Source: a virus (taxonomy: Duplodnaviria; Heunggongvirae; Uroviricota; Caudoviricetes). Taken from it: a DNA stretch of 47,047 nt. A program made the position numbers and the translations under genes. The notes below the pieces were generated by a model. The model was not told the DNA's origin. It saw only the letters and a list, made by a program, of their open reading frames with translations, and made no database searches. Position 1 is the first letter of the stretch. Each line of letters opens with the position of its first letter. Positions 4,268 to 47,047 of the stretch are shown in pieces. The stretch lies in the IMG/VR virus record IMGVR_UViG_2872703611_000004; one strand, written 5' to 3'.

Positions 4268-4549
4268 TCACCGTTCCTTAAAGACGCCGTTCAACATGCC
4301 GATCGCCAGGCTTAAATGAGTCGGTGTGAATCCCATCAGCGTTACCGTTTCGCGGTGCTTCTTTAGTACGCTACGGCAAATGTCATCGACGTTTTTATCC
4401 GGAAACTGCTGTCTGGCTTTTTTGATTTCAGAATTAGCCTGACGGGCAATGCTGCGAAGGGCGTTTTCTTGCTGAGGTGTCATTGAACAAGCCCCATGTC
4501 GGCAAGCATAAGCACACAGAATATGAAGCCCGCTGCCAGAAAAATGCAT
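4268..4549 (-). CDS. Hypothetical early-left-operon protein in the lambda orf61 position; different length and overlap pattern from lambda orf61; internal start at 4483 possible
   Basis: 93-aa ORF in the leftward operon, 10 nt downstream of the orf63 stop. Confidence 0.55.
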   Translation of the reverse strand: MHFSGSGLHILCAYACRHGACSMTPQQENALRSIARQANSEIKKARQQFPDKNVDDICRSVLKKHRETVTLMGFTPTHLSLAIGMLNGVFKER

Positions 4550-6885: not shown

Positions 6886-7018
6886 TTTTTGGGACTCCTG
6901 GCTGATTAAGTATGTCGATAAGGCGTTTCCATCCGTCACGTAATTTACGGGTGATTCGTTCAAGTAAAGATTCGGAAGGGCAGCCAGCAACAGGCCACCC
7001 TGCAATGGCATATTGCAT
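6854..7018 (-). CDS. cIII: Lambda CIII (FtsH inhibitor, stabilises CII)
   Basis: 54 aa read from the reverse complement: [54 protein letters not shown]; missed by the track because it is under 60 aa. Confidence 0.9.
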   Translation of the reverse strand: MQYAIAGWPVAGCPSESLLERITRKLRDGWKRLIDILNQPGVPKNGSNTYGYPD

Positions 7019-7090
7019 GGTGTGCTCCTTATTTATACATAACGAAAAACGCCTCGAGTGAAGCGTTATTGGTATGCGGTAACGCCGCGC

Positions 7091-15174: not shown

Positions 15175-15558
15175 ATGCGTGATATTCAGATGGTTCTTGA
15201 GCGTTGGGGAGCGTGGGCGGCTAATAATCATGAAGATGTGACCTGGTCGTCCATTGCCGCCGGTTTTAAGGGATTAATTACTTCAAAAGTAAAATCTCGC
15301 CCGCAATGTTGTGACGATGACGCGATGATCATTTGCGGGTGCATGGCCCGTCTGAAAAAGAACAACAGCGATTTGCACGATTTATTAGTAGATTATTATG
15401 TAGTCGGTATGACATTCATGTCACTGGCAGGTAAGCATTGCTGCTCTGATGGTTATATCGGGAAAAGGTTACAGAAGGCTGAGGGCATAATTGAAGGGAT
15501 GTTAATGGCATTAGATATCCGGTTAGAGATGGATATCGTTGTTAATAACTCTAATTAA
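15175..15558 (+). CDS. quuD: Late-gene antiterminator Q (DLP12 QuuD type)
   Basis: 127 aa from internal ATG: [62 protein letters not shown]...; Cys-rich zinc-binding region. Confidence 0.8.
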
Positions 15559-15590
15559 TACGCCAATTATTTACTAAAAGTTATTAAAAA

Positions 15591-15746
15591 TGGGGCGTTG
15601 AAACGCCCCCAAAAATAAAGGGTAATATATAACAGAAGGTTTGTATAGTTAGAAGCAAGGTTGTGCTTCTAAAGGAAGTGGCTTGAGGGAGCCACTTATA
15701 TGTTGGGGAGGCAAAGCCTCCCACAACATATCTTTTAGTAATCAAA
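15591..15746 (-). ncRNA. Candidate IpeX-like sRNA / structured 3' region of nmpC: three stem-loops then a terminator hairpin with U-run on the minus strand
   Basis: Downstream of the nmpC stop on the minus strand: GC-rich hairpin 15701-15728, hairpins at 15676-15697 and 15651-15668, then GGGGCGTTGAAACGCCCC (15591-15608) followed by AUUUUUAAUAAC; a porin-regulating sRNA (IpeX) is described at the 3' end of nmpC in DLP12. Confidence 0.3.
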
Positions 15747-16829
15747 TTAGAACTGGTAAACCATACCTACAGCAACGATATCATCGGTAGCAACGCCAGA
15801 TGCTTTCGTGAAATCGCTCTTATCAATCAGGTTGATTTTGTAGTCAACAAAAGTGGACATATTTTTGTTGAAGTAATAGGTTGCACCTACATCAACATAT
15901 TCAACCAGGTCCTGATCACCCCAAACACCCAAGTCTTTTCCTTTAGAATGCAGGTAAGCAACGGATGGACGCAGGCCGAAGTCGAACTGATATTGTGCAA
16001 CAGCTTCGAAGTTTTGTGCTTTGTTGGCAATATGGTTATTACCAAAAACAGTCATGTTCTGGGTTTCAGAATAGGTGGTAGCCAGATAGATGTTGTTCGC
16101 ATCATATTTCAGACCAGCTGCCCATACTTCAGCATTTTGACCAGATGCATTCAGGCTGTTGTTACCGTAGATAACCTGATTATTAGTGCGGTCAGATTTA
16201 GCATAGGTTGCACCTACACCGAATCCTTCATACTCATAAGTAGTGGAGAAACCGAAACCATCACCATTAGCTTCAGTTACGTCAGTGCGGTCATTTTTAC
16301 CCTGATACTGAGCAGCAAAGTTCAGACCATCAACCAGACCAAAGAAGTCATTGTTACGATAAGTTGCAACACCTGTGGTGCGACCAGTCATGAATACATC
16401 TGTTTGGGTCCAGGTATCGCCACCGAATTCTGGCAGAACGTCGGTCCATGCACCAATATCGTATGCTACACCGTAGTTACGGCCATAATCGATGGAGCCG
16501 TAGTCACCGAATTTCAGGCCAGCGAAGGCAAGACGGGTTTTATCTTTGGAGGAACCTTGAGATTCAGCGCGGTTGCCTTTGAATTCATATTCCCACTGAC
16601 CGAAACCAGTCAGTTGATCGTTGATTTGGGTTTCACCTTTGAAGCCAAGACGGGCATAAGTAGTATCACCATCATCTGCATCATTAGAGGAGAAGTAGTG
16701 CTTAGCATTAACTTTCCCGTACAGATCCAGCTTGTTACTGTCTTTATTATAAATTTCAGCTGCCTGAGCAGACATCGCCATCAGTACTGATGCAGCTACA
16801 GCAGAAATTGCCACTGTTAATTTTTTCAT
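15747..16829 (-). CDS. nmpC: Intact general porin of the OmpC/OmpF/PhoE family (NmpC / Lc type), prophage-encoded
   Basis: Signal peptide [23 protein letters not shown], then AEIYNKD...; C-terminal VYQF; start taken at the Met with AGGG 8 nt upstream (track ORF extends to 16889). Confidence 0.9.
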
Positions 16830-17256
16830 CGTGAGCCCTTTTTTTGAACTATTATTAAAAAATGATGTCACTGCGCGATAAATATTCATCTAATCAATGT
16901 GATTATTTCAAGATGTAAGTTTTGGTTTCTCATTTGATTTGTGAAGTAGATCTCTATTTTTATCTGAACTTTTTCTATCGAATCCTATTCATGGCTCTTG
17001 GCTGAATAAAAATAAATCTATTAGCCAATTTATATTAATGGCTGTTATTTATAAGTGCTCTATAATTTGAAGATTCAATTTAAACCAGCTAAAAATAACG
17101 CTGGAAATTATTTGTTGGTTATTTGTTGAGATTTGCTTATGTATTTGTAGTGGTGTTTTCAATACTCGGTAGCATTCTCGCAAATATCATTTAGTGGTTT
17201 ACGTACGTAAAAAATTGGTTATGCTGTTAAGAGTGGTTACTTCGTCACACAGCTTA

Positions 17257-17287
17257 AACCCGCCGTCGAGCGGGTTTTTCCATTTTT
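17257..17287 (+). terminator. Rho-independent terminator upstream of the holin gene (candidate tR'-equivalent)
   Basis: AACCCGC-CGTCGA-GCGGGTT followed by TTTTCCATTTTTT. Confidence 0.5.
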
Positions 17288-17416: not shown

Positions 17417-17632
17417 ATGAAATCCATGGATAAGTTAACAACGGGTGTCGCCTATGGCACCTCAGCAGGTAGTGCCGGTTACTGGTTTTTACAGCTGCTC
17501 GATAAAGTCACGCCCTCACAGTGGGCAGCAATAGGTGTGCTGGGTAGCCTGGTATTTGGCCTGCTGACGTACCTGACAAACCTTTATTTCAAGATTAAAG
17601 AAGATAAGCGCAAGGCTGCGAGAGGTGAATAA
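17417..17632 (+). CDS. S: Class II holin of phage 21 type (pinholin) with dual start (antiholin/holin)
   Basis: 71 aa [71 protein letters not shown]; Met1-Lys-Ser-Met4 dual-start motif; two TM segments. Confidence 0.9.
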
Positions 17633-18129
17633 TGCCTCCATCATTACGAAAAGCCGTTGCTGCTGCTATTGGTGGCGGAGCAATTGCTATAGCATCAGTG
17701 TTAATTACTGGCCCAAGTGGTAACGATGGTCTGGAAGGTGTCAGCTACATACCATACAAAGATATTGTTGGTGTATGGACTGTATGTCACGGGCATACAG
17801 GAAAAGACATCATGCTCGGTAAAACGTATACCAAAGCAGAATGCAAAGCCCTCCTGAATAAAGACCTTGCCACGGTCGCCAGACAAATTAACCCGTACAT
17901 CAAAGTCGATATACCGGAAACAATGCGCGGCGCTCTTTACTCATTCGTTTACAACGTGGGTGCTGGCAATTTCAGAACATCGACGCTTCTTCGCAAAATA
18001 AACCAGGGCGATATCAAAGGCGCATGTGATCAGCTACGTCGCTGGACATATGCTGGCGGTAAGCAATGGAAAGGTCTCATGACTCGTCGTGAGATTGAGC
18101 GTGAAATCTGTTTGTGGGGTCAGCAATGA
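17632..18129 (+). CDS. R: SAR endolysin (phage 21 R type lysozyme with N-terminal signal-anchor-release domain)
   Basis: 165 aa [82 protein letters not shown]...; Gly/Ala-rich weakly hydrophobic N-terminal helix. Confidence 0.9.
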
Positions 18130-18593
18130 ACAGAGTAACCGCGATTATCTCCGCTCTGGTTATCTGCATCATCGTCTGCCTGTCATGGGCTGTTAATCAT
18201 TACCGTGATAACGCCATTACCTACAAAGCCCAGCGCGACAAAAATGTCAGAGAACTGAAGCTGGCGAACGCGGCAATTACTGACATGCAGATGCGTCAGC
18301 GTGATGTTGCTGCGCTCGATGCAAAATACACGAAGGAGTTAGCTGATGCGAAAGCTGAAAATGATGCTCTTCTGCGGAAGCTTGATAATGGTGGCAGGGT
18401 GCTCGTCAAAGGAAAATGCCCTGTGCCATCCTCTGCCGAAACCTCCAGCGCCTCCGGCATGGGCAATGATGCCACCGTCGAACTCTCTCCAGTTGCTGGA
18501 CGAAACGTTCTCGATATCCGGGACGGAATTATCCGCGACCAAACAGCACTGAGAACGCTTCAGGAATACATTAGGACGCAATGCCTTCGATGA
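18126..18593 (+). CDS. Rz: Rz i-spanin (N-terminal TM anchor, coiled-coil periplasmic domain)
   Basis: [80 protein letters not shown]...; start overlaps the R stop. Confidence 0.9.
18346..18552 (+). CDS. Rz1: Rz1 o-spanin, outer-membrane lipoprotein embedded in the +1 frame of Rz
   Basis: [44 protein letters not shown]...; lipobox MVAGC, proline-rich mature part, fully inside Rz. Confidence 0.85.
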
Positions 18594-18770
18594 TAGCGAT
18601 AATTTTACTCATCATCCTTCACATCTGGCTCTGTAGACAGGGTGGTGATCACTTCTGGAGTAAATCCAGATTAAACATCTCATTGCTGATGCTTGATATT
18701 GAGCATCTGGCGCGCAGTAAGGGGCTGCGTTGAGATAAGAGCCAGTTCATTACAAATACCAGGATTTAGC

Positions 18771-18797
18771 CTCGCATTCGCGGGGCTTTTTATATCT
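18771..18797 (+). terminator. Candidate terminator downstream of the lysis cassette
   Basis: GCCTCGC-ATTC-GCGGGGC stem (one G-U pair) followed by TTTTTATAT. Confidence 0.35.
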
Positions 18798-18935
18798 GAA
18801 TTTCACAGCGCATCTCACGCGCATATTAACGAGAGCCTTTCAGTAAGCGAGCCTGAGAAATGCCGTTATAGGTGGCGACCTCTCTCGGGCGGCTTTTCTG
18901 TGAGACAGGCTCACTTTCTAAAAGGTAAAGACGCT

Positions 18936-19460
18936 ATGAATAATCATTCAGTTATTCCAGCCTTCGACTTCCGAGAAATGGTGCAAGCCAAAAACGGAGA
19001 GGTCGTTACCACATCCAGAAAAATTGCCAAGTACTTCGGCAAGCGACACGGTGATGTTCTCAGGAAAATCGAGCAGGTTAAGGCTGATTGCTCGCGTGAG
19101 TTTAGCCAACGCAATTTTGCGTCGGCTGATTATATCGATGAGCAGGGCAAGGTTCGCCCGATGTACAGCCTGACGAAAGATGGCTGGATCATGGTTGTGA
19201 TGGGGTTCACCGGGAAAGCTGCTGCGGCAATCAAGGAGAGCTATATCGCAGCATTCAACTGGATGGCAGAACAACTGAGCCGCCGCATGGCAATTGGCGA
19301 AGAAATGCAGCACCGCTACGCCATCAAAGAAACACGCTCAAAGCTGAAAGGTACGATCGGCAGTCGGTTAATGAACGAACGGAAGAAAGAGAAGCGTGTC
19401 CTGGCTGTCGAGCATGAATACATCTTGCAGGTGACACAGCCTGAACTGCTGATTAATTGA
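18936..19460 (+). CDS. Rha-family phage regulatory protein (antirepressor-like)
   Basis: 174 aa from ATG with upstream AAAGG: MNNHSVIPAFDFREMVQAKNGEVVTTSRKIAKYFGKRHGDVLRKIEQ...; the 81 upstream codons of the track ORF lack coding character. Confidence 0.65.
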   Translation: MNNHSVIPAFDFREMVQAKNGEVVTTSRKIAKYFGKRHGDVLRKIEQVKADCSREFSQRNFASADYIDEQGKVRPMYSLTKDGWIMVVMGFTGKAAAAIKESYIAAFNWMAEQLSRRMAIGEEMQHRYAIKETRSKLKGTIGSRLMNERKKEKRVLAVEHEYILQVTQPELLIN

Positions 19461-19671
19461 AGATGTCATTACAAAGCCTATCTACGGGGGGCTTGATAAT
19501 GGCTTATACCCTGCACGGGATAACTTAACTGATATCCCTTTTAACGGATAAAGGTATTCAAGCCTGACACATCATGCGCTGTATCGTCGCCGTATTCCCG
19601 CATTAACCATGACCGTAGGTAACCGGCTCATTTAAACCGTCTGGTCTGTTTCCTCCGGCTCTACAAAAATA

Positions 19672-20349
19672 ATGTCCATCATTTTTAATGGACACTATCG
19701 TATGAAACACCGGACCTGGATCACTGAAGCTTTACGTCTTCACTTTGAAGAACATTTACCCCGGGTTGTGGCCGGGCGTCGCCTGGGTGTACCAAAATCA
19801 ACAGTTTGTAGTATGTTCGTGCGCTTTCGGAGAGCTGGCCTTTCGTGGCCTTTGCCCGCAGGCATGTCGGAGCAGGAACTTGATGCCTGCCTTTACGGAC
19901 AATTTTCCACGGTACCAGTCGTACGTCCTGAAAGCACCGTTATATCCGAAGCCCCCGTGGTAAAAAAACGTCCCCGGCGGCCCAACTTCCCTTATGAGTT
20001 TAAAATCGCCTTAGTGGAGCAGTCACTGCAGCCCGGAGCCTGTGTGGCGCAGATCGCCCGGGAAAACGGAATCAACGATAACCTGCTCTTCAACTGGCGC
20101 CATCAATACCGGAAAGGTGGCCTGCTGCCTTCCGGAAAAAATATGCCGGCACTGCTTCCCGTGACGTTAACGCCGGAGCCGGATAATAAAATCCCGGCCC
20201 CCGCACAGGAACCAGAGCAGATAAATACACCGCCCGACAGTCTGTGTTGTGAGCTGGTTCTGCCGGCCGGAACTCTCAGGCTTAAAGGTAAACTGACGCC
20301 GGCGTTATTACAGACACTTATCCGCGAAATAAAAGGGAGCAGCCACTGA
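19672..20349 (+). CDS. IS66-family accessory protein (orf1/TnpA-like); true start may be Met11
   Basis: 225-aa first ORF of the element; last codons abut the second ORF start (ATGA junction). Confidence 0.6.
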   Translation: MSIIFNGHYRMKHRTWITEALRLHFEEHLPRVVAGRRLGVPKSTVCSMFVRFRRAGLSWPLPAGMSEQELDACLYGQFSTVPVVRPESTVISEAPVVKKRPRRPNFPYEFKIALVEQSLQPGACVAQIARENGINDNLLFNWRHQYRKGGLLPSGKNMPALLPVTLTPEPDNKIPAPAQEPEQINTPPDSLCCELVLPAGTLRLKGKLTPALLQTLIREIKGSSH

Positions 20350-20696
20350 TGATATCTCTCCCTGCAGGTTCGCGTATCTGGCTGGTTGCAGGTATCACCG
20401 ATATGCGAAATGGCTTTAACGGCCTGGCATCAAAAGTTCAGAACGTCCTGAAGGATGACCCGTTCTCCGGACACCTGTTCATCTTCCGCGGACGCCGGGG
20501 TGACCAGATAAAAGTGTTGTGGGCTGACAGTGACGGACTGTGCCTCTTCACCAAACGCCTGGAGCGGGGCCGCTTCGTCTGGCCAGTCACCCGTGACGGC
20601 AAGGTGCACCTTACTCCGGCTCAGTTATCCATGCTTCTTGAAGGTATCAACTGGAAGCACCCGAAACGAACGGAACGCGCTGGAATCCGCATATAA
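20349..20696 (+). CDS. IS66-family Orf2 (TnpB-like)
   Basis: 115 aa MISLPAGSRIWLVAGITDMRNGFNGLASKVQNVLKDDPFSGHLFIFRGRRGDQIKVLWADSDGLCLFTKRLERGRF...; characteristic IS66 orf2 size and motifs. Confidence 0.8.
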   Translation: MISLPAGSRIWLVAGITDMRNGFNGLASKVQNVLKDDPFSGHLFIFRGRRGDQIKVLWADSDGLCLFTKRLERGRFVWPVTRDGKVHLTPAQLSMLLEGINWKHPKRTERAGIRI

Positions 20697-20715
20697 CCCG
20701 TTGTAAAGTGAGGAT

Positions 20716-22287
20716 ATGGACACCTCACTTGCTCATGAGAACGCCCGCCTGCGGGCACTGTTGCAGACGCAACAGGACACCATCCGCCAGATGGCTGAAT
20801 ACAACCGCCTGCTCTCACAGCGGGTGGCGGCTTATGCTTCCGAAATCAACCGGCTGAAGGCGCTGGTTGCGAAACTGCAACGTATGCAGTTCGGTAAAAG
20901 CTCAGAAAAACTTCGTGCAAAAACCGAACGGCAGATACAGGAAGCACAGGAGCGAATCAGCGCACTTCAGGAAGAAATGGCGGAAACGCTGGGTGAGCAA
21001 TATGACCCGGTACTGCCATCCGCCCTGCGCCAGTCTTCAGCCCGTAAACCGTTACCGGCCTCACTTCCCCGTGAAACCCGGGTTATCCGGCCGGAAGAGG
21101 AATGCTGTCCTGCCTGTGGTGGTGAACTCAGTTCTCTGGGATGTGATGTGTCAGAGCAACTGGAGCTTATCAGCAGCGCCTTTAAGGTTATCGAAACACA
21201 ACGTCCGAAACTGGCCTGTTGTCGGTGCGACCATATCGTGCAGGCACCAGTACCTTCAAAACCCATTGCACGCAGTTATGCCGGAGCGGGGCTCCTGGCC
21301 CATGTCGTCACCGGAAAATATGCAGACCATCTGCCGTTATACCGCCAGTCAGAGATATACCGCCGTCAGGGTGTGGAGCTGAGCCGTGCCACACTGGGGC
21401 GCTGGACAGGTGCCGTTGCTGAACTACTGGAGCCGCTGTATGACGTCCTGCGCCAGTATGTGCTGATGCCCGGTAAAGTCCATGCTGATGATATCCCCGT
21501 CCCGGTCCAGGAGCCGGGCAGCGGTAAAACCCGGACAGCCCGGCTGTGGGTCTACGTCCGTGATGACCGTAACGCCGGTTCACAGATGCCCCCGGCGGTC
21601 TGGTTCGCGTACAGTCCGGACCGGAAAGGTATCCATCCACAAAATCACCTGGCCGGTTACAGCGGTGTGCTTCAGGCCGATGCTTACGGTGGTTACCGGG
21701 CGTTATACGAATCCGGCAGAATAACGGAAGCCGCGTGTATGGCTCATGCCCGGAGAAAAATCCACGATGTGCATGCAAGAGCGCCCACCTACATCACCAC
21801 GGAAGCCCTGCAGCGTATCGGTGAACTGTATGCCATCGAGGCAGAGGTCCGGGGCTGTTCAGCAGAACAGCGTCTGGCGGCAAGAAAAGCCAGAGCCGCG
21901 CCACTGATGCAGTCACTGTATGACTGGATACAGCAACAGATGAAAACACTGTCGCGTCACTCAGATACGGCAAAAGCGTTCGCATACCTGCTGAAACAGT
22001 GGGATGCACTGAACGTGTACTGCAGTAATGGCTGGGTGGAAATCGACAACAACATCGCAGAGAACGCCTTACGGGGAGTGGCCGTAGGCCGGAAAAACTG
22101 GATGTTCGCGGGTTCCGACAGCGGTGGTGAACATGCGGCGGTGTTGTACTCGCTGATCGGCACATGCCGTCTGAACAATGTGGAGCCAGAAAAGTGGCTG
22201 CGTTACGTCATTGAACATATCCAGGACTGGCCGGCAAACCGGGTACGCGATCTGTTGCCCTGGAAAGTTGATCTGAGCTCTCAGTAA
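20716..22287 (+). CDS. IS66-family transposase (TnpC)
   Basis: 523 aa; N-terminal leucine-zipper-like region, CxxC...CxxC zinc finger (CCPACGG...CCRCDH), conserved C-terminal catalytic region. Confidence 0.85.
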
Positions 22288-22469
22288 ATATCAATACGGT
22301 TCTGACGAGTCGCTTACGACCGTAGCCCGACGGGGAATTCCTTCTGCGTGAGTGTGCGGGAATAATCAAAAACGATGCACACCGGGTTATTAACGCGTCA
22401 ACTGAACGCGGGGTTGCTCTTCATGTCAGCCAGTCCGGTGCAGGGGTAGAAGAAACCGGACGTTATGGT

Positions 22470-38832: not shown

Positions 38833-41800
38833 ATGGGTAAAGGCAGCAGTAAGGGGCATACCCCGCGCGAAGCGAAAGATAACCTGAAGTCCACGCAGCT
38901 GCTGAGTGTGATCGATGCCATCAGCGAAGGGCCGGTTGAAGGTCCGGTGGATGGATTAAAAAGCGTGCTGCTGAACAGTACGCCGGTGCTGGACAGTGAG
39001 GGGAATACCAATATATCCGGCGTCACGGTGGTGTTCCGGGCCGGTGAGCAGGAGCAGACACCGCCGGAGGGATTTGAATCCTCCGGCTCCGAGACGGTGC
39101 TCGGTACAGAAGTGAAATATGACACGCCGATCACCCGGACCATCACGTCGGCAAACATTGACCGTCTGCGTTTTACTTTCGGCGTGCAGGCACTGGTGGA
39201 AACCACCTCAAAGGGGGACAGGAATCCATCGGAAGTCCGCCTGCTGGTTCAGATACAACGTAACGGTGGCTGGGTGACGGAAAAAGACATCACCATTAAG
39301 GGTAAAACCACTTCACAGTATCTGGCCTCGGTGGTGGTGGATAACCTGCCGCCGCGCCCGTTTAATATCCGGATGCGCAGGATGACGCCGGACAGCACCA
39401 CAGACCAGCTGCAGAACAAAACGCTCTGGTCGTCATACACCGAAATTATCGATGTGAAACAGTGCTACCCGAACACGGCACTGGTCGGCGTGCAGGTGGA
39501 CTCGGAGCAGTTCGGCAGCCAGCAGGTGAGCCGTAATTATCATCTGCGCGGGCGTATTCTGCAGGTGCCGTCGAATTATAACCCGCAGACGCGGCAATAC
39601 AGCGGTATCTGGGACGGAACGTTTAAACCGGCATACAGCAACAACCCGGCCTGGTGTCTGTGGGATATGCTGACCCATCCGCGCTACGGCATGGGGAAAC
39701 GTCTTGGTGCGGTGGATGTGGATAAATGGGCGCTGTATCTTATCGGCCAGTACTGCGACCAGTCAGTGCCGGACGGCTTTGGCGGCACGGAGCCGCGCAT
39801 CACCTGTAATGCCTGGCTGACCACACAGCGTAAGGCGTGGGATGTGCTCAGTGATTTCTGCTCTGCGATGCGCTGTATGCCGGTATGGAACGGGCAGACG
39901 CTGACGTTCGTGCAGGACCGACCGTCGGATAAGGTGTGGACCTATAACCGCAGTAATGTGGTGATGCCGGATGATGGTGCGCCGTTCCGCTACAGCTTCA
40001 GCGCCCTGAAGGACCGCCATAATGCCGTTGAGGTGAACTGGATTGACCCGAATAACGGCTGGGAGACGGCGACAGAGCTTGTGGAGGACACGCAGGCCAT
40101 TGCCCGTTACGGTCGTAACGTCACGAAGATGGATGCTTTTGGCTGTACCAGCCGGGGGCAGGCACACCGCGCCGGGCTGTGGCTGATTAAAACAGAACTG
40201 CTGGAAACGCAGACCGTGGACTTCAGCGTGGGTGCCGAAGGGCTTCGCCATGTACCGGGCGATGTCATTGAAATCTGCGATGATGACTATGCCGGTATCC
40301 GCACCGGCGGGCGCGTGCTGGCGGTAAACAGCCAGACCCGGACGCTGACGCTCGACCGTGAAATCACGCTGCCATCTTCCGGCACCACGCTGATAAGCCT
40401 GGTTGACGGGCAGGGGAGTCCGGTCAGCGTGGAGGTTCAGTCCGTCACCGACGGCGTGAAGGTGAAAGTGAGCCGTGTTCCTGACGGCGTTGCTGAATAC
40501 AGCGTATGGGGGCTGAAGCTGCCGACGTTGCGCCAGCGCCTGTTCCGCTGCGTGAGTATCCGTGAGAACGACGACGGCACGTATGCCATCACCGCCGTGC
40601 AGCATGTACCGGAAAAAGAGGCCATCGTGGATAACGGGGCGCACTTTGACGGCGACCAGAGCGGCACGGTAAATGGTGTCACGCCGCCAGCGGTGCAGCA
40701 CCTGACCGCAGAAGTCACCGCAGACAGCGGGGAGTATCAGGTGCTGGCGCGCTGGGACACGCCGAAGGTGGTGAAGGGCGTGAGCTTCCTGCTTCGCCTG
40801 ACCGTGGCAGCGGATGACGGCCGTGAGCGGCTGGTCAGCACGGCCCGGACGACGGAAACCACTTACCGCTTCACACAACTGGCTCTGGGGAACTACAGGC
40901 TGACAGTCCGGGCAGTAAATGCGTGGGGGCAGCAGGGCGATCCGGCGTCGGTATCGTTCCGGATTGCCGCACCGGCAGCGCCGTCGCGGATTGAGCTGAC
41001 GCCGGGCTATTTTCAGATAACCGCCACGCCGCATCTTGCGGTTTATGACCCGACGGTACAGTTTGAGTTCTGGTTCTCGGAAAAACGGATTGCGGATATC
41101 AGGCAGGTTGAAACCAGCGCGCGTTATCTTGGTACGGCACTGTACTGGATAGCCGCCAGTATCAATATCAAACCGGGCCATGATTATTATTTTTACGTTC
41201 GCAGTGTGAACACCGTTGGCAAATCGGCATTCGTGGAGGCTGTCGATCAGCCGAGTGATGATGCATCAGGCTATCTGGATTTTTTCAAAGGCGAGATAGG
41301 GAAAACCCATCTGGCTCAGGAGCTGTGGACGCAGATTGATAACGGTCAGCTTGCGCCTGACCTGACTGAAATCAGGACGTCCATAACGGATGTCAGCAAT
41401 GAAATAACACAGACCGTCAATAAGAAACTGGAAGACCAGAGTGCAGCGATCCAGCAGATACAGAAGGTTCAGGTTGATACAAATAATAACCTGAACAGCA
41501 TGTGGGCAGTGAAGCTGCAGCAGATGCAGGACGGACGCCTTTATATTGCGGGTATCGGTGCCGGTATTGAGAACACCCCTGACGGCATGCAGAGTCAGGT
41601 GCTGCTGGCAGCAGACAGGATTGCGATGATTAATCCTGCGAATGGCAACACAAAGCCGATGTTTGTTGGTCAGGGCGATCAGATATTCATGAATGAAGTG
41701 TTCCTGAAACGCCTGACGGCCCCCACCATTACCAGCGGCGGTAATCCTCCGGCATTTTCCCTGACATCAGACGGGAGACTGACGGCGAAAAATGCGGATA

Positions 41801-42330
41801 TCAGTGGCAGTGTGAATGCGAACTCAGGAACGCTCAACAATGTCACGATTAACCAGAACTGTACGATTAAGGGCATGCTGGAGGCGACCCAGGTCAGAGG
41901 AGATTTCGTTAAAGCTGTATCAAAAGCCTTCCCGAAAAAAGTCGGTACGTGGGGTAACACGGAAACACCAAACGGTACGGTTACAGTCACCATCAGCGAT
42001 GATCATAACTTTGACCGCCAGATTATTATTCCGCCCATTATTTTTAACGGTATAGCGTATGACGATCCGGGGAGCGGAAATAACCCAGGAGGCACGCGAT
42101 ACACGGGTTATGGTTTTGAAGTTCGCAAAAACGGCGTATTAATCGCATCCAGAGAAACTAAAGGGGCCATTCCCGGTAGTTACAGTGCAGTTATTGATAT
42201 GCCGAGTGGCAGGGGAAGCGTCACTCTGGAGTTTAAGATTTTCCAGAAAGGCAATCAGGGGGCAGGCAATATCACCGACTGTACGGTGATTGTGACCAAA
42301 AAAGCCGCTTCCGGCATCAGTATTCGTTGA
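38833..42330 (+). CDS. J: Central tail fibre / host-specificity protein J; N-terminal ~800 aa lambda-like, C-terminal receptor-binding region divergent from lambda J
   Basis: 1165 aa [80 protein letters not shown]...; C-terminus ...[38 protein letters not shown] differs from lambda as I remember it. Confidence 0.95.
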
Positions 42331-46463: not shown

Positions 46464-47047
46464 TGGCATTCAGAATGAGTGAACAACCACGGACCATAAA
46501 AATTTATAATCTGCTGGCCGGAACTAATGAATTTATTGGTGAAGGTGACGCATATATTCCGCCTCATACAGGTCTGCCAGCAAACAGTACCGATATTGCA
46601 CCGCCAGATATTCCGGCTGGCTTTGTGGCTGTTTTCAACAGTGATGAGGCATCGTGGCATCTCGTTGAAGATCATCGGGGAAAAACCGTCTATGACGTGG
46701 CTTCCGGCGACGCGTTATTTATTTCTGAACTTGGCTCGTTACCGGAAAATGTCACCTGGTTATCGCCGGAAGGGGAATATCAGAAGTGGAACGGCACAGC
46801 CTGGGTGAAGGATACGGAAGCAGAAAAACTGTTCCGGATCCGGGAGGCGGAAGAAACAAAAAACAGCCTGATGCAGGTAGCCAGTGAGCATATAGCGCCA
46901 CTTCAGGATGCTGTAGATCTGGAGATCGCAACGGAGGAAGAAACCTCATTGCTGGAAGCCTGGAAAAAATATCGGGTGTTGCTGAACCGTGTTAATACAA
47001 CAACTGCACCGGATATTGAATGGCCAACAGTACCCATTATCGAATAG
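46463..47047 (+). CDS. tfa: Tail fibre assembly protein Tfa (complete, stop at window end)
   Basis: 194 aa [82 protein letters not shown]...; ATG overlaps the stf stop (TAATGG). Confidence 0.92.

Follow-up and report, generated by a model that had tools for sequence, protein, structure and literature searches.

The 47,047-nt stretch of phage DNA analysed here (IMG/VR virus record IMGVR_UViG_2872703611_000004, Caudoviricetes; "the window" below) carries on its minus strand an intact gene for a general porin of the NmpC/Lc type, followed by a 3' untranslated region (UTR) homologous to the small RNA (sRNA) IpeX. Our analysis supports, with a probability that we put at about 0.8, the view that this locus is a lysogenic-conversion cassette in which the porin is combined with an IpeX 3' UTR that would act by antisense on the host mRNAs ompC and ompF. 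The module of porin plus IpeX as such is already known and very common, since a 3' region like that of the E. coli K-12 prophage DLP12 was detected in 36 phage records and in 2510 of 5426 complete E. coli genomes, some of which have as many as four copies. What is new is the predicted complementarity to ompC and ompF together with an unrecognised homologue in phage P7, and both are testable. The coordinates of the features are collected in Table 1.

The predicted complementarity resides in an unpaired, nearly invariant segment between the third hairpin of the 3' UTR and its terminator. Pairing was scored from windowed ViennaRNA duplex energies plus the opening energies of both RNAs, against the 5' regions (-110 to +60) of 78 genes from two 50-kb regions of K-12. 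An unrestricted duplexfold scan returned meaningless whole-length duplexes, and a longest-run count allowing G.U was swamped by the G/U-rich stems; windowed scans and energies were used instead. With accessibility taken into account, ompC ranked first (-16.3 kcal/mol) and ompF second (-14.1 kcal/mol) of the 78. The ranks of ompA, which is reportedly unaffected by IpeX, were 9-14, and those of the phage porin's own leader, placed among the same 5' regions, 42-52. In the predicted ompC duplex, IpeX nucleotides 106-120 (15627-15641, AACCUUCUGUUAUAU) bind ompC -21..-7 (AUAUAACAGAGGGUU) through 15 contiguous pairs, including one G.U, and cover the Shine-Dalgarno sequence; a second predicted helix of 6 pairs joins IpeX 126-131 (15616-15621) to ompC -29..-24. 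The single G.U cuts the exact ompC match into 10 + 4 nt, which would be invisible to a word-based search. The predicted ompF duplex involves 15617-15639, with the core AUUACCCUUU on GAGGGUAAUA, and spans ompF -15..+10, reaching the start codon.

In a raw scan of 24,984 windows (both strands of 100 kb; background mean -6.5, standard deviation 2.9) the ribosome-binding site of ompC was the best partner at -26.4, and the next one followed at -20.1. The observed energy was reached by 1 of 1000 dinucleotide shuffles for ompC, by 16 of 1000 for ompF and by 104 of 1000 for ompA. Two positive controls obtained -17.3 (MicC-ompC) and -13.3 (MicF-ompF) under the same scoring, so the IpeX energies fall within the range of validated regulators. 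The minimum free energy (MFE) structure of the IpeX-ompC dimer leaves none of the four IpeX hairpins broken and gains an intermolecular helix, with a free energy difference (ddG) of about -21, and the ompC leader is at least 99% identical in 5355 of the 5426 genomes. No report of the pairing site was found in the literature searched; it may have been noted elsewhere.

The 3' UTR of nmpC in phage P7 adds a second case. It shows no blastn similarity to IpeX; folded alone, it forms three hairpins, a long unpaired segment and a terminator, which is the layout of IpeX. The loop of its hairpin 2 is conserved and the stem bears two compensatory double changes (A-U to G-C and U-A to A-U), and the inner stems of hairpins 1 and 3 and of the terminator are of other sequence and still paired. 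Its unpaired segment, UCAAUUUAACUUCAUGUUAUUUAUUACCUUUUUAUU, differs in sequence from the lambdoid one and is longer. Among the 78 genes it ranks ompF first and ompC second, with the P7 porin's own leader at 33, and the top two partners in a 200-kb scan were ompF (-23.4; 22 pairs, -15..+10) and ompC (-20.7; -7..+13). Matching shuffles numbered 0 of 500 for ompF, 1 of 500 for ompC and 247 of 500 for ompA. Because two divergent porin 3' UTRs address the same two host mRNAs with different nucleotides, chance or a relic is hard to sustain as an explanation. Judged by fold and alignment, the P7 3' UTR is apparently a divergent and undescribed IpeX-like RNA, and no description of it as an sRNA was found in the literature searched. 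A one-base variant of the P7 type, ACCU to ACCC, was seen in three sequences and matches ompF better.

We propose that the unpaired segment would serve as a double antisense seed. One part of it would pair with the ompC leader over the Shine-Dalgarno sequence, overlapping the MicC site, and the adjacent part with the Shine-Dalgarno and start region of ompF, which is the MicF site; both duplexes would block initiation of translation, and the hairpins and terminator would confer stability and possibly Hfq binding. The leader of the phage porin itself, which appears to lack complementary sequence, would escape, so that the phage porin would take the place of the major porins in a lysogen, and after this exchange the phage's own kind, like other OmpC-dependent phages, would adsorb less well. 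A more general statement can be made, namely that IpeX is a canonical antisense sRNA with adjacent MicC-like and MicF-like seeds, that porin genes of two unrelated types of phage, lambdoid and P1/P7, have each kept such an RNA while their own leaders escape, as a general "replace host porins" design, and that the P7 RNA is an unrecognised member of the family; we give this broader statement an even chance of being correct.

Several observations weigh against an antisense action or against its proposed benefit. The pairing score is home-made (ViennaRNA duplexfold plus unpaired probabilities), its background of 78 genes and 200 kb is less than a whole genome, and by raw hybridisation energy ompF comes only about tenth in the IpeX scan. 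The number of compensatory pairs among the lambdoid IpeX variants is 0, as these variants are 97% alike. The complementarity could also be a relic of the segment's origin, the plus strand being porin-leader-like. As regards exclusion, the porin/IpeX phages Chlobot, PhiR57_1, PhiR29_2 and Lambda_4C10 carry a tail-tip protein J of only 57-61% identity, so self-exclusion is no general rule. Finally, Castillo-Keller, Vuong and Misra (J Bacteriol 2006) reportedly saw no complementarity of ipeX to the required region of the ompC leader, and reportedly found the effect on ompC, and not that on ompF, to be independent of Hfq.

The 2006 view is paraphrased in PMC12197685 and PMC8313858 and supports the likeliest of the rival explanations, according to which IpeX acts without base pairing, by titrating Hfq or another RNA-binding factor or through envelope stress from the extra porin, and the complementarity is a relic. 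We regard this explanation as unlikely. It is compatible with the resemblance of the plus strand of the segment to the ompC leader (AAAUAAAGG..AUAUAACAGARGGUU). A relic, however, would not remain invariant beside flanking loops and bulges that vary, nor would it recur in the divergent P7 3' UTR with another sequence and shifted target sites, and the predicted IpeX energies match those of the validated MicC and MicF duplexes. With respect to Hfq, IpeX has been called Hfq-independent with one likely direct target (PMC8313858), and Hfq dependence has been reported for its effect on ompF and not on ompC (PMC5069750); an ompC duplex of 15+6 bp could dispense with Hfq and a shorter ompF duplex could need it, which would fit the reported pattern. 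The plus strand of 15610-15648 reads like a porin leader (AAAUAAAGG..AUAUAACAGAAGGUU; compare ompC -32..-7), and its sequence suggests that the seed segment may have arisen as an inverted porin-leader fragment.

That the 3' region corresponds in position to IpeX had been proposed in the initial annotation, with an alignment to K-12 as the check. The alignment agrees: the region is about 96-97% identical to the 3' region of K-12 DLP12 nmpC, the site of the described ipeX (95.6% over 181 nt by blastn; 93% mean column identity in a 275-column alignment), and lies between the stop codon of the prophage porin (15747-15749) and the terminator (15586-15609), both on one strand. The IpeX copies of K-12, PA-2 and 434B are mutually identical. 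IpeX of DLP12 and PA-2 has been described as a part of the porin transcript that lowers OmpC and OmpF (PMC12197685, PMC5069750, PMC8065619, PMC7177473); its length is given as 167 nt (PMC12197685), and it has been quantified in RNA-seq of K-12 (PMC12266141). In the K-12 RefSeq record micF and micC are ncRNA features, and ipeX is missing (its locus is at 4341-4529 of the K-12 DLP12 sequence). Rfam 15 gave 0 matches to the 3' region at gathering score and apparently holds no IpeX family; matches at E<=10 (such as traJ_5 and sau-19 on hairpin 1) are at chance level. A species-level scan with the hairpin 3 motif returned E. coli only, plus one contig of Streptomyces alkaliterrae (NZ_VJYK02000722.1, 442 bp) that is probably contamination by E. 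coli or phage DNA.

Four hairpins had been noted after the porin stop, the last of them a canonical terminator, and folding recovers three hairpins followed by a terminator. The MFE of the 3' UTR is -58.5 kcal/mol versus -28.9 +/- 3.3 for shuffles (n=200; z = -8.97; 0 as good). The terminator stem runs from 15609 to 15592 and the U-tract from 15590 to 15586, and the predicted 3' end of the RNA at 15586-15590 is near the 15591 given before. A 53-aa open reading frame (ORF) within the UTR (15584-15745) was rejected as coding, since indels of 1-2 nt disrupt its frame in the variants from K-12 and phage Perceval. In an alignment of 12 variants the bulged base and the loop of hairpin 1 vary while the stem is kept, natural variation of the terminator is confined to its loop, and the unpaired segment has 0 variable columns from AAACC onward.

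These patterns also bear on the explanation that the hairpins are cis elements only, stabilising the 3' end of the porin mRNA and, through the terminator, insulating the convergent Q gene, with no role in trans. Stable hairpins at the 3' end are a common protection of mRNAs, 34 nt separate the terminator from the stop codon of Q, and the lambdoid variants lack covariation. Such a purely local function is nevertheless quite improbable: expression of the almost identical K-12/PA-2 sequence by itself reportedly represses OmpC and OmpF (PMC12197685, PMC5069750, PMC8065619), no more than about 6 positions, 0 of them in the seed segment, distinguish the window from that sequence, and the most conserved part of the region is the unpaired segment rather than the stems.

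The plus strand of the 3' region folds comparably (z = -8.1), as expected for hairpins, and three other observations point to the minus strand as the functional RNA: a T-run follows the terminator on the minus strand only, natural variants fall in loops and a bulge, and an A-to-G variant in hairpin 3 (4 of the 12) still pairs, as G.U, in RNA of the minus strand but leaves an A.C mismatch in RNA of the plus strand. That the conservation reflects a plus-strand function, either a Q-dependent late promoter or Q-utilisation (qut) site or a terminator of the early-right transcript, can practically be dismissed, for although lambda pR' sits just downstream of Q and both strands fold equally well, a scan of 15559-15760 found no promoter-like sites on the plus strand, the sole -35-like hexamer lies in the terminator loop and is variable among variants, no T-run follows any plus-strand hairpin, and a tR'-like terminator far downstream (17256-17277), just before the holin gene, would put the late promoter on the far side of the porin gene.

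The porin gene had been described as complete from signal peptide to C-terminal Phe and as NmpC/Lc-like. Both statements hold: the protein covers Pfam Porin_1 (PF00267) in full (1-337/337, E 1e-152), exceeds the cutoff of the NCBIfam "porin OmpC" subfamily (515 bits, cutoff 484), has an N-terminus identical to the annotated Lc signal peptide and ends in ...VYQF. Its identity is 95% to the Perceval allele, 92% to PA-2 Lc, 84% to P7 NmpC, 64% to OmpC and 62% to OmpF. The start had to be revised. The longest ORF extends over 15747-16889 on the minus strand, and 16889 had been taken as the start; the true start is almost certainly the ATG at 16829 (MKKLTVAIS...AQA/AEIYNK), because the identical sequence (in strain 120899, among others) is in RefSeq a coding sequence of 1083 nt named "porin OmpC", a signal peptide of 23 residues is annotated at the corresponding N-terminus in the PA-2 lc record, and an AAGGG Shine-Dalgarno sequence is located about 8 nt upstream. 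The disruption of the K-12 DLP12 nmpC by IS5, which had been pointed out before, is present in the K-12 sequence, where IS5 splits the gene 58 nt ahead of the stop.

At least three lambdoid porin alleles exist (99%, 95% and 91% identity), and their differences and indels are mostly found in four blocks (residues ~180-190, 215-230, 262-266 and 335-348) that are likely to be surface loops, going by general porin topology; variation in surface loops would be in keeping with pressure to diversify exerted by phages or by immunity. Relatives in IMG/VR are nearly all 99-100% identical, and some singletons resemble sequencing errors. Upstream of the gene, the two CRP sites annotated in the PA-2 lc record correspond to roughly 16938-16958 and 17234-17254 of the window, and a consensus scan of 16830..17255 found no consensus sigma-70 promoter. 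A "porin" of Salmonella phage SPF_0923 was considered and set aside: it is a host ompN with host flanks, hence no phage cassette.

Lysogenic conversion and exclusion had also been suggested for this locus. This is essentially the published PA-2 story and not new; it extends to the window by homology, and the tail-tip protein J adds local support. The C-terminal 249 aa of J are 91% identical to J of phage 434 and 53% identical to lambda J, and phage 434 J targets OmpC (PMC12502783). From this sequence we infer OmpC to be the receptor of the prophage's J as well; with a 434-type J, a lowered OmpC level combined with a replacement porin would be expected to cut adsorption of the phage's own kind.

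The window represents a lambda-like prophage beside ybhC, i.e. at the lambda attachment site, and is 99.9-100% identical to a prophage of strain 120899 apart from the positions of insertion sequence (IS) elements. The prophage of strain 120899 has an extra IS100 without counterpart in the window. The IS66-family element of the window is inserted 3' of the lysis genes and of the neighbouring ORF 18693-19460, and the same IS is found in a tail gene in strain 120899. As previously noted, the porin gene is antisense, with Q on one side and the lysis genes on the other; the lysis genes are of S21 type, Q is convergent with the porin gene, and the identical RefSeq sequence is named quuD. The terminator-like hairpin ahead of the holin gene is a candidate for the late operon's tR'. 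In that case the late promoter and the site of Q utilisation would be situated between porin and holin, and Q would be separated from its promoter by the porin/IpeX cassette. A weak Rfam match to Trp_leader (17161-17283) corresponds to this hairpin.

Table 1. Positions of the porin/IpeX cassette, its neighbours and the P7 counterpart (window coordinates unless stated otherwise).
Feature	Position	Strand	Details
NmpC/Lc-type general porin gene, intact	15747..16829	-	360 aa plus stop; stop codon 15747-15749
Porin signal peptide	16761-16829	-	by homology to PA-2 lc
Porin upstream region	16830..17255	-	on average 94% identical to the upstream regions of PA-2, K-12 and Perceval
IpeX-homologous 3' UTR RNA	15586..15746	-	porin stop to end of terminator U-tract; 161 nt (167 nt to 15580)
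Hairpin 1	15698..15731	-	8 bp + bulge + 7 bp, UUU loop; MFE structure
Hairpin 2	15676..15697	-	8 bp, CCCUCA loop; MFE structure
Hairpin 3	15649..15672	-	9 bp; MFE structure
Unpaired near-invariant segment	15610..15648	-	IpeX nt 99-137, ACUAUACAAACCUUCUGUUAUAUAUUACCCUUUAUUUUU; ~39 nt
Rho-independent terminator	15586..15609	-	7-bp G+C stem, 4-nt loop, AUUUUU; consensus scan and fold
Q antiterminator gene (quuD-like)	15175..15558	+	Pfam PF06530 1-118/118, E 3.5e-53
Terminator-like hairpin with T-run	17256-17277	+	consensus scan; ~140 nt 5' of holin start 17417
S21-type holin, endolysin, Rz	17417-18593		
Tail-tip host-specificity protein J	38833..42330	+	C-terminal receptor-binding part 434-type
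Lambda CIII thermoregulator	6973-7031	-	Rfam gathering-score match, 88.5 bits
IS66-family element (ISCro1-like)	19619-22318		3 ORFs at 19672-22287
IS009	46806-47004	+	Rfam gathering-score match, 225 bits
P7 nmpC 3' UTR	2617-2798 of AF503408		phage P7 (P1-like); own fold and alignment

The cassette is found in almost half of the complete E. coli genomes, and it alters the porin composition of the outer membrane, which matters for phage susceptibility and antibiotic permeability. Many clinical isolates have intact copies, and IpeX may thus be one source of the natural variation of OmpC and OmpF levels. The complementarity gives the mechanism of IpeX, an RNA described in 2006, a testable form. 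If true, our results suggest that a phage porin replacement uses the antisense logic of host MicC and MicF.

Compared with known systems, the porin of the window shares with PA-2 Lc and DLP12 NmpC the OmpC-family 16-strand general porin type, the signal peptide and the slot between Q and S21-type lysis genes, and it differs from PA-2 Lc in length (360 aa here, 365 aa there). The RNA shares with the IpeX of DLP12 and PA-2 its place in the porin 3' UTR next to Q, the four stem-loops and an identical unpaired segment. The differences amount to about 6 substitutions and indels, among them the loss of 1 nt behind the stop codon; the others affect the bulge and loop of hairpin 1, one base ahead of the seed, and the terminator loop. 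At nucleotide 104 the window has C where K-12 has U, a change that destabilises a small A-U hairpin and eases access to the seed (opening energy, ED, 6.7 versus 8.8 kcal/mol); also, the window IpeX follows an intact porin gene, whereas the K-12 IpeX follows the nmpC cut by IS5. In P7 the predicted ompF pairing is stronger, the ompC site is shifted to -7..+13, and the nmpC gene lies away from Q and lysis genes. The prophage sRNA svsR of NC-SV, which lowers lamB (PMC12803456), is likewise a prophage-encoded sRNA directed at an outer-membrane phage receptor, but it is unrelated in sequence, derives from the 3' end of cI, has another target and comes without a replacement porin. Functional parallels would be MicC and MicF, whose sites overlap those predicted for IpeX; GUUAUAU...CCUUUAU is common to IpeX and the MicC 5' end, and UAUUACC to IpeX and MicF. 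The predicted ompC site of IpeX reaches the Shine-Dalgarno sequence (-21..-7), whereas MicC pairs at -34..-14. In contrast to MicC and MicF, which have their seeds at the 5' end, IpeX is phage-encoded and borne by a 3' UTR, with both predicted seeds in one unpaired segment near the terminator.

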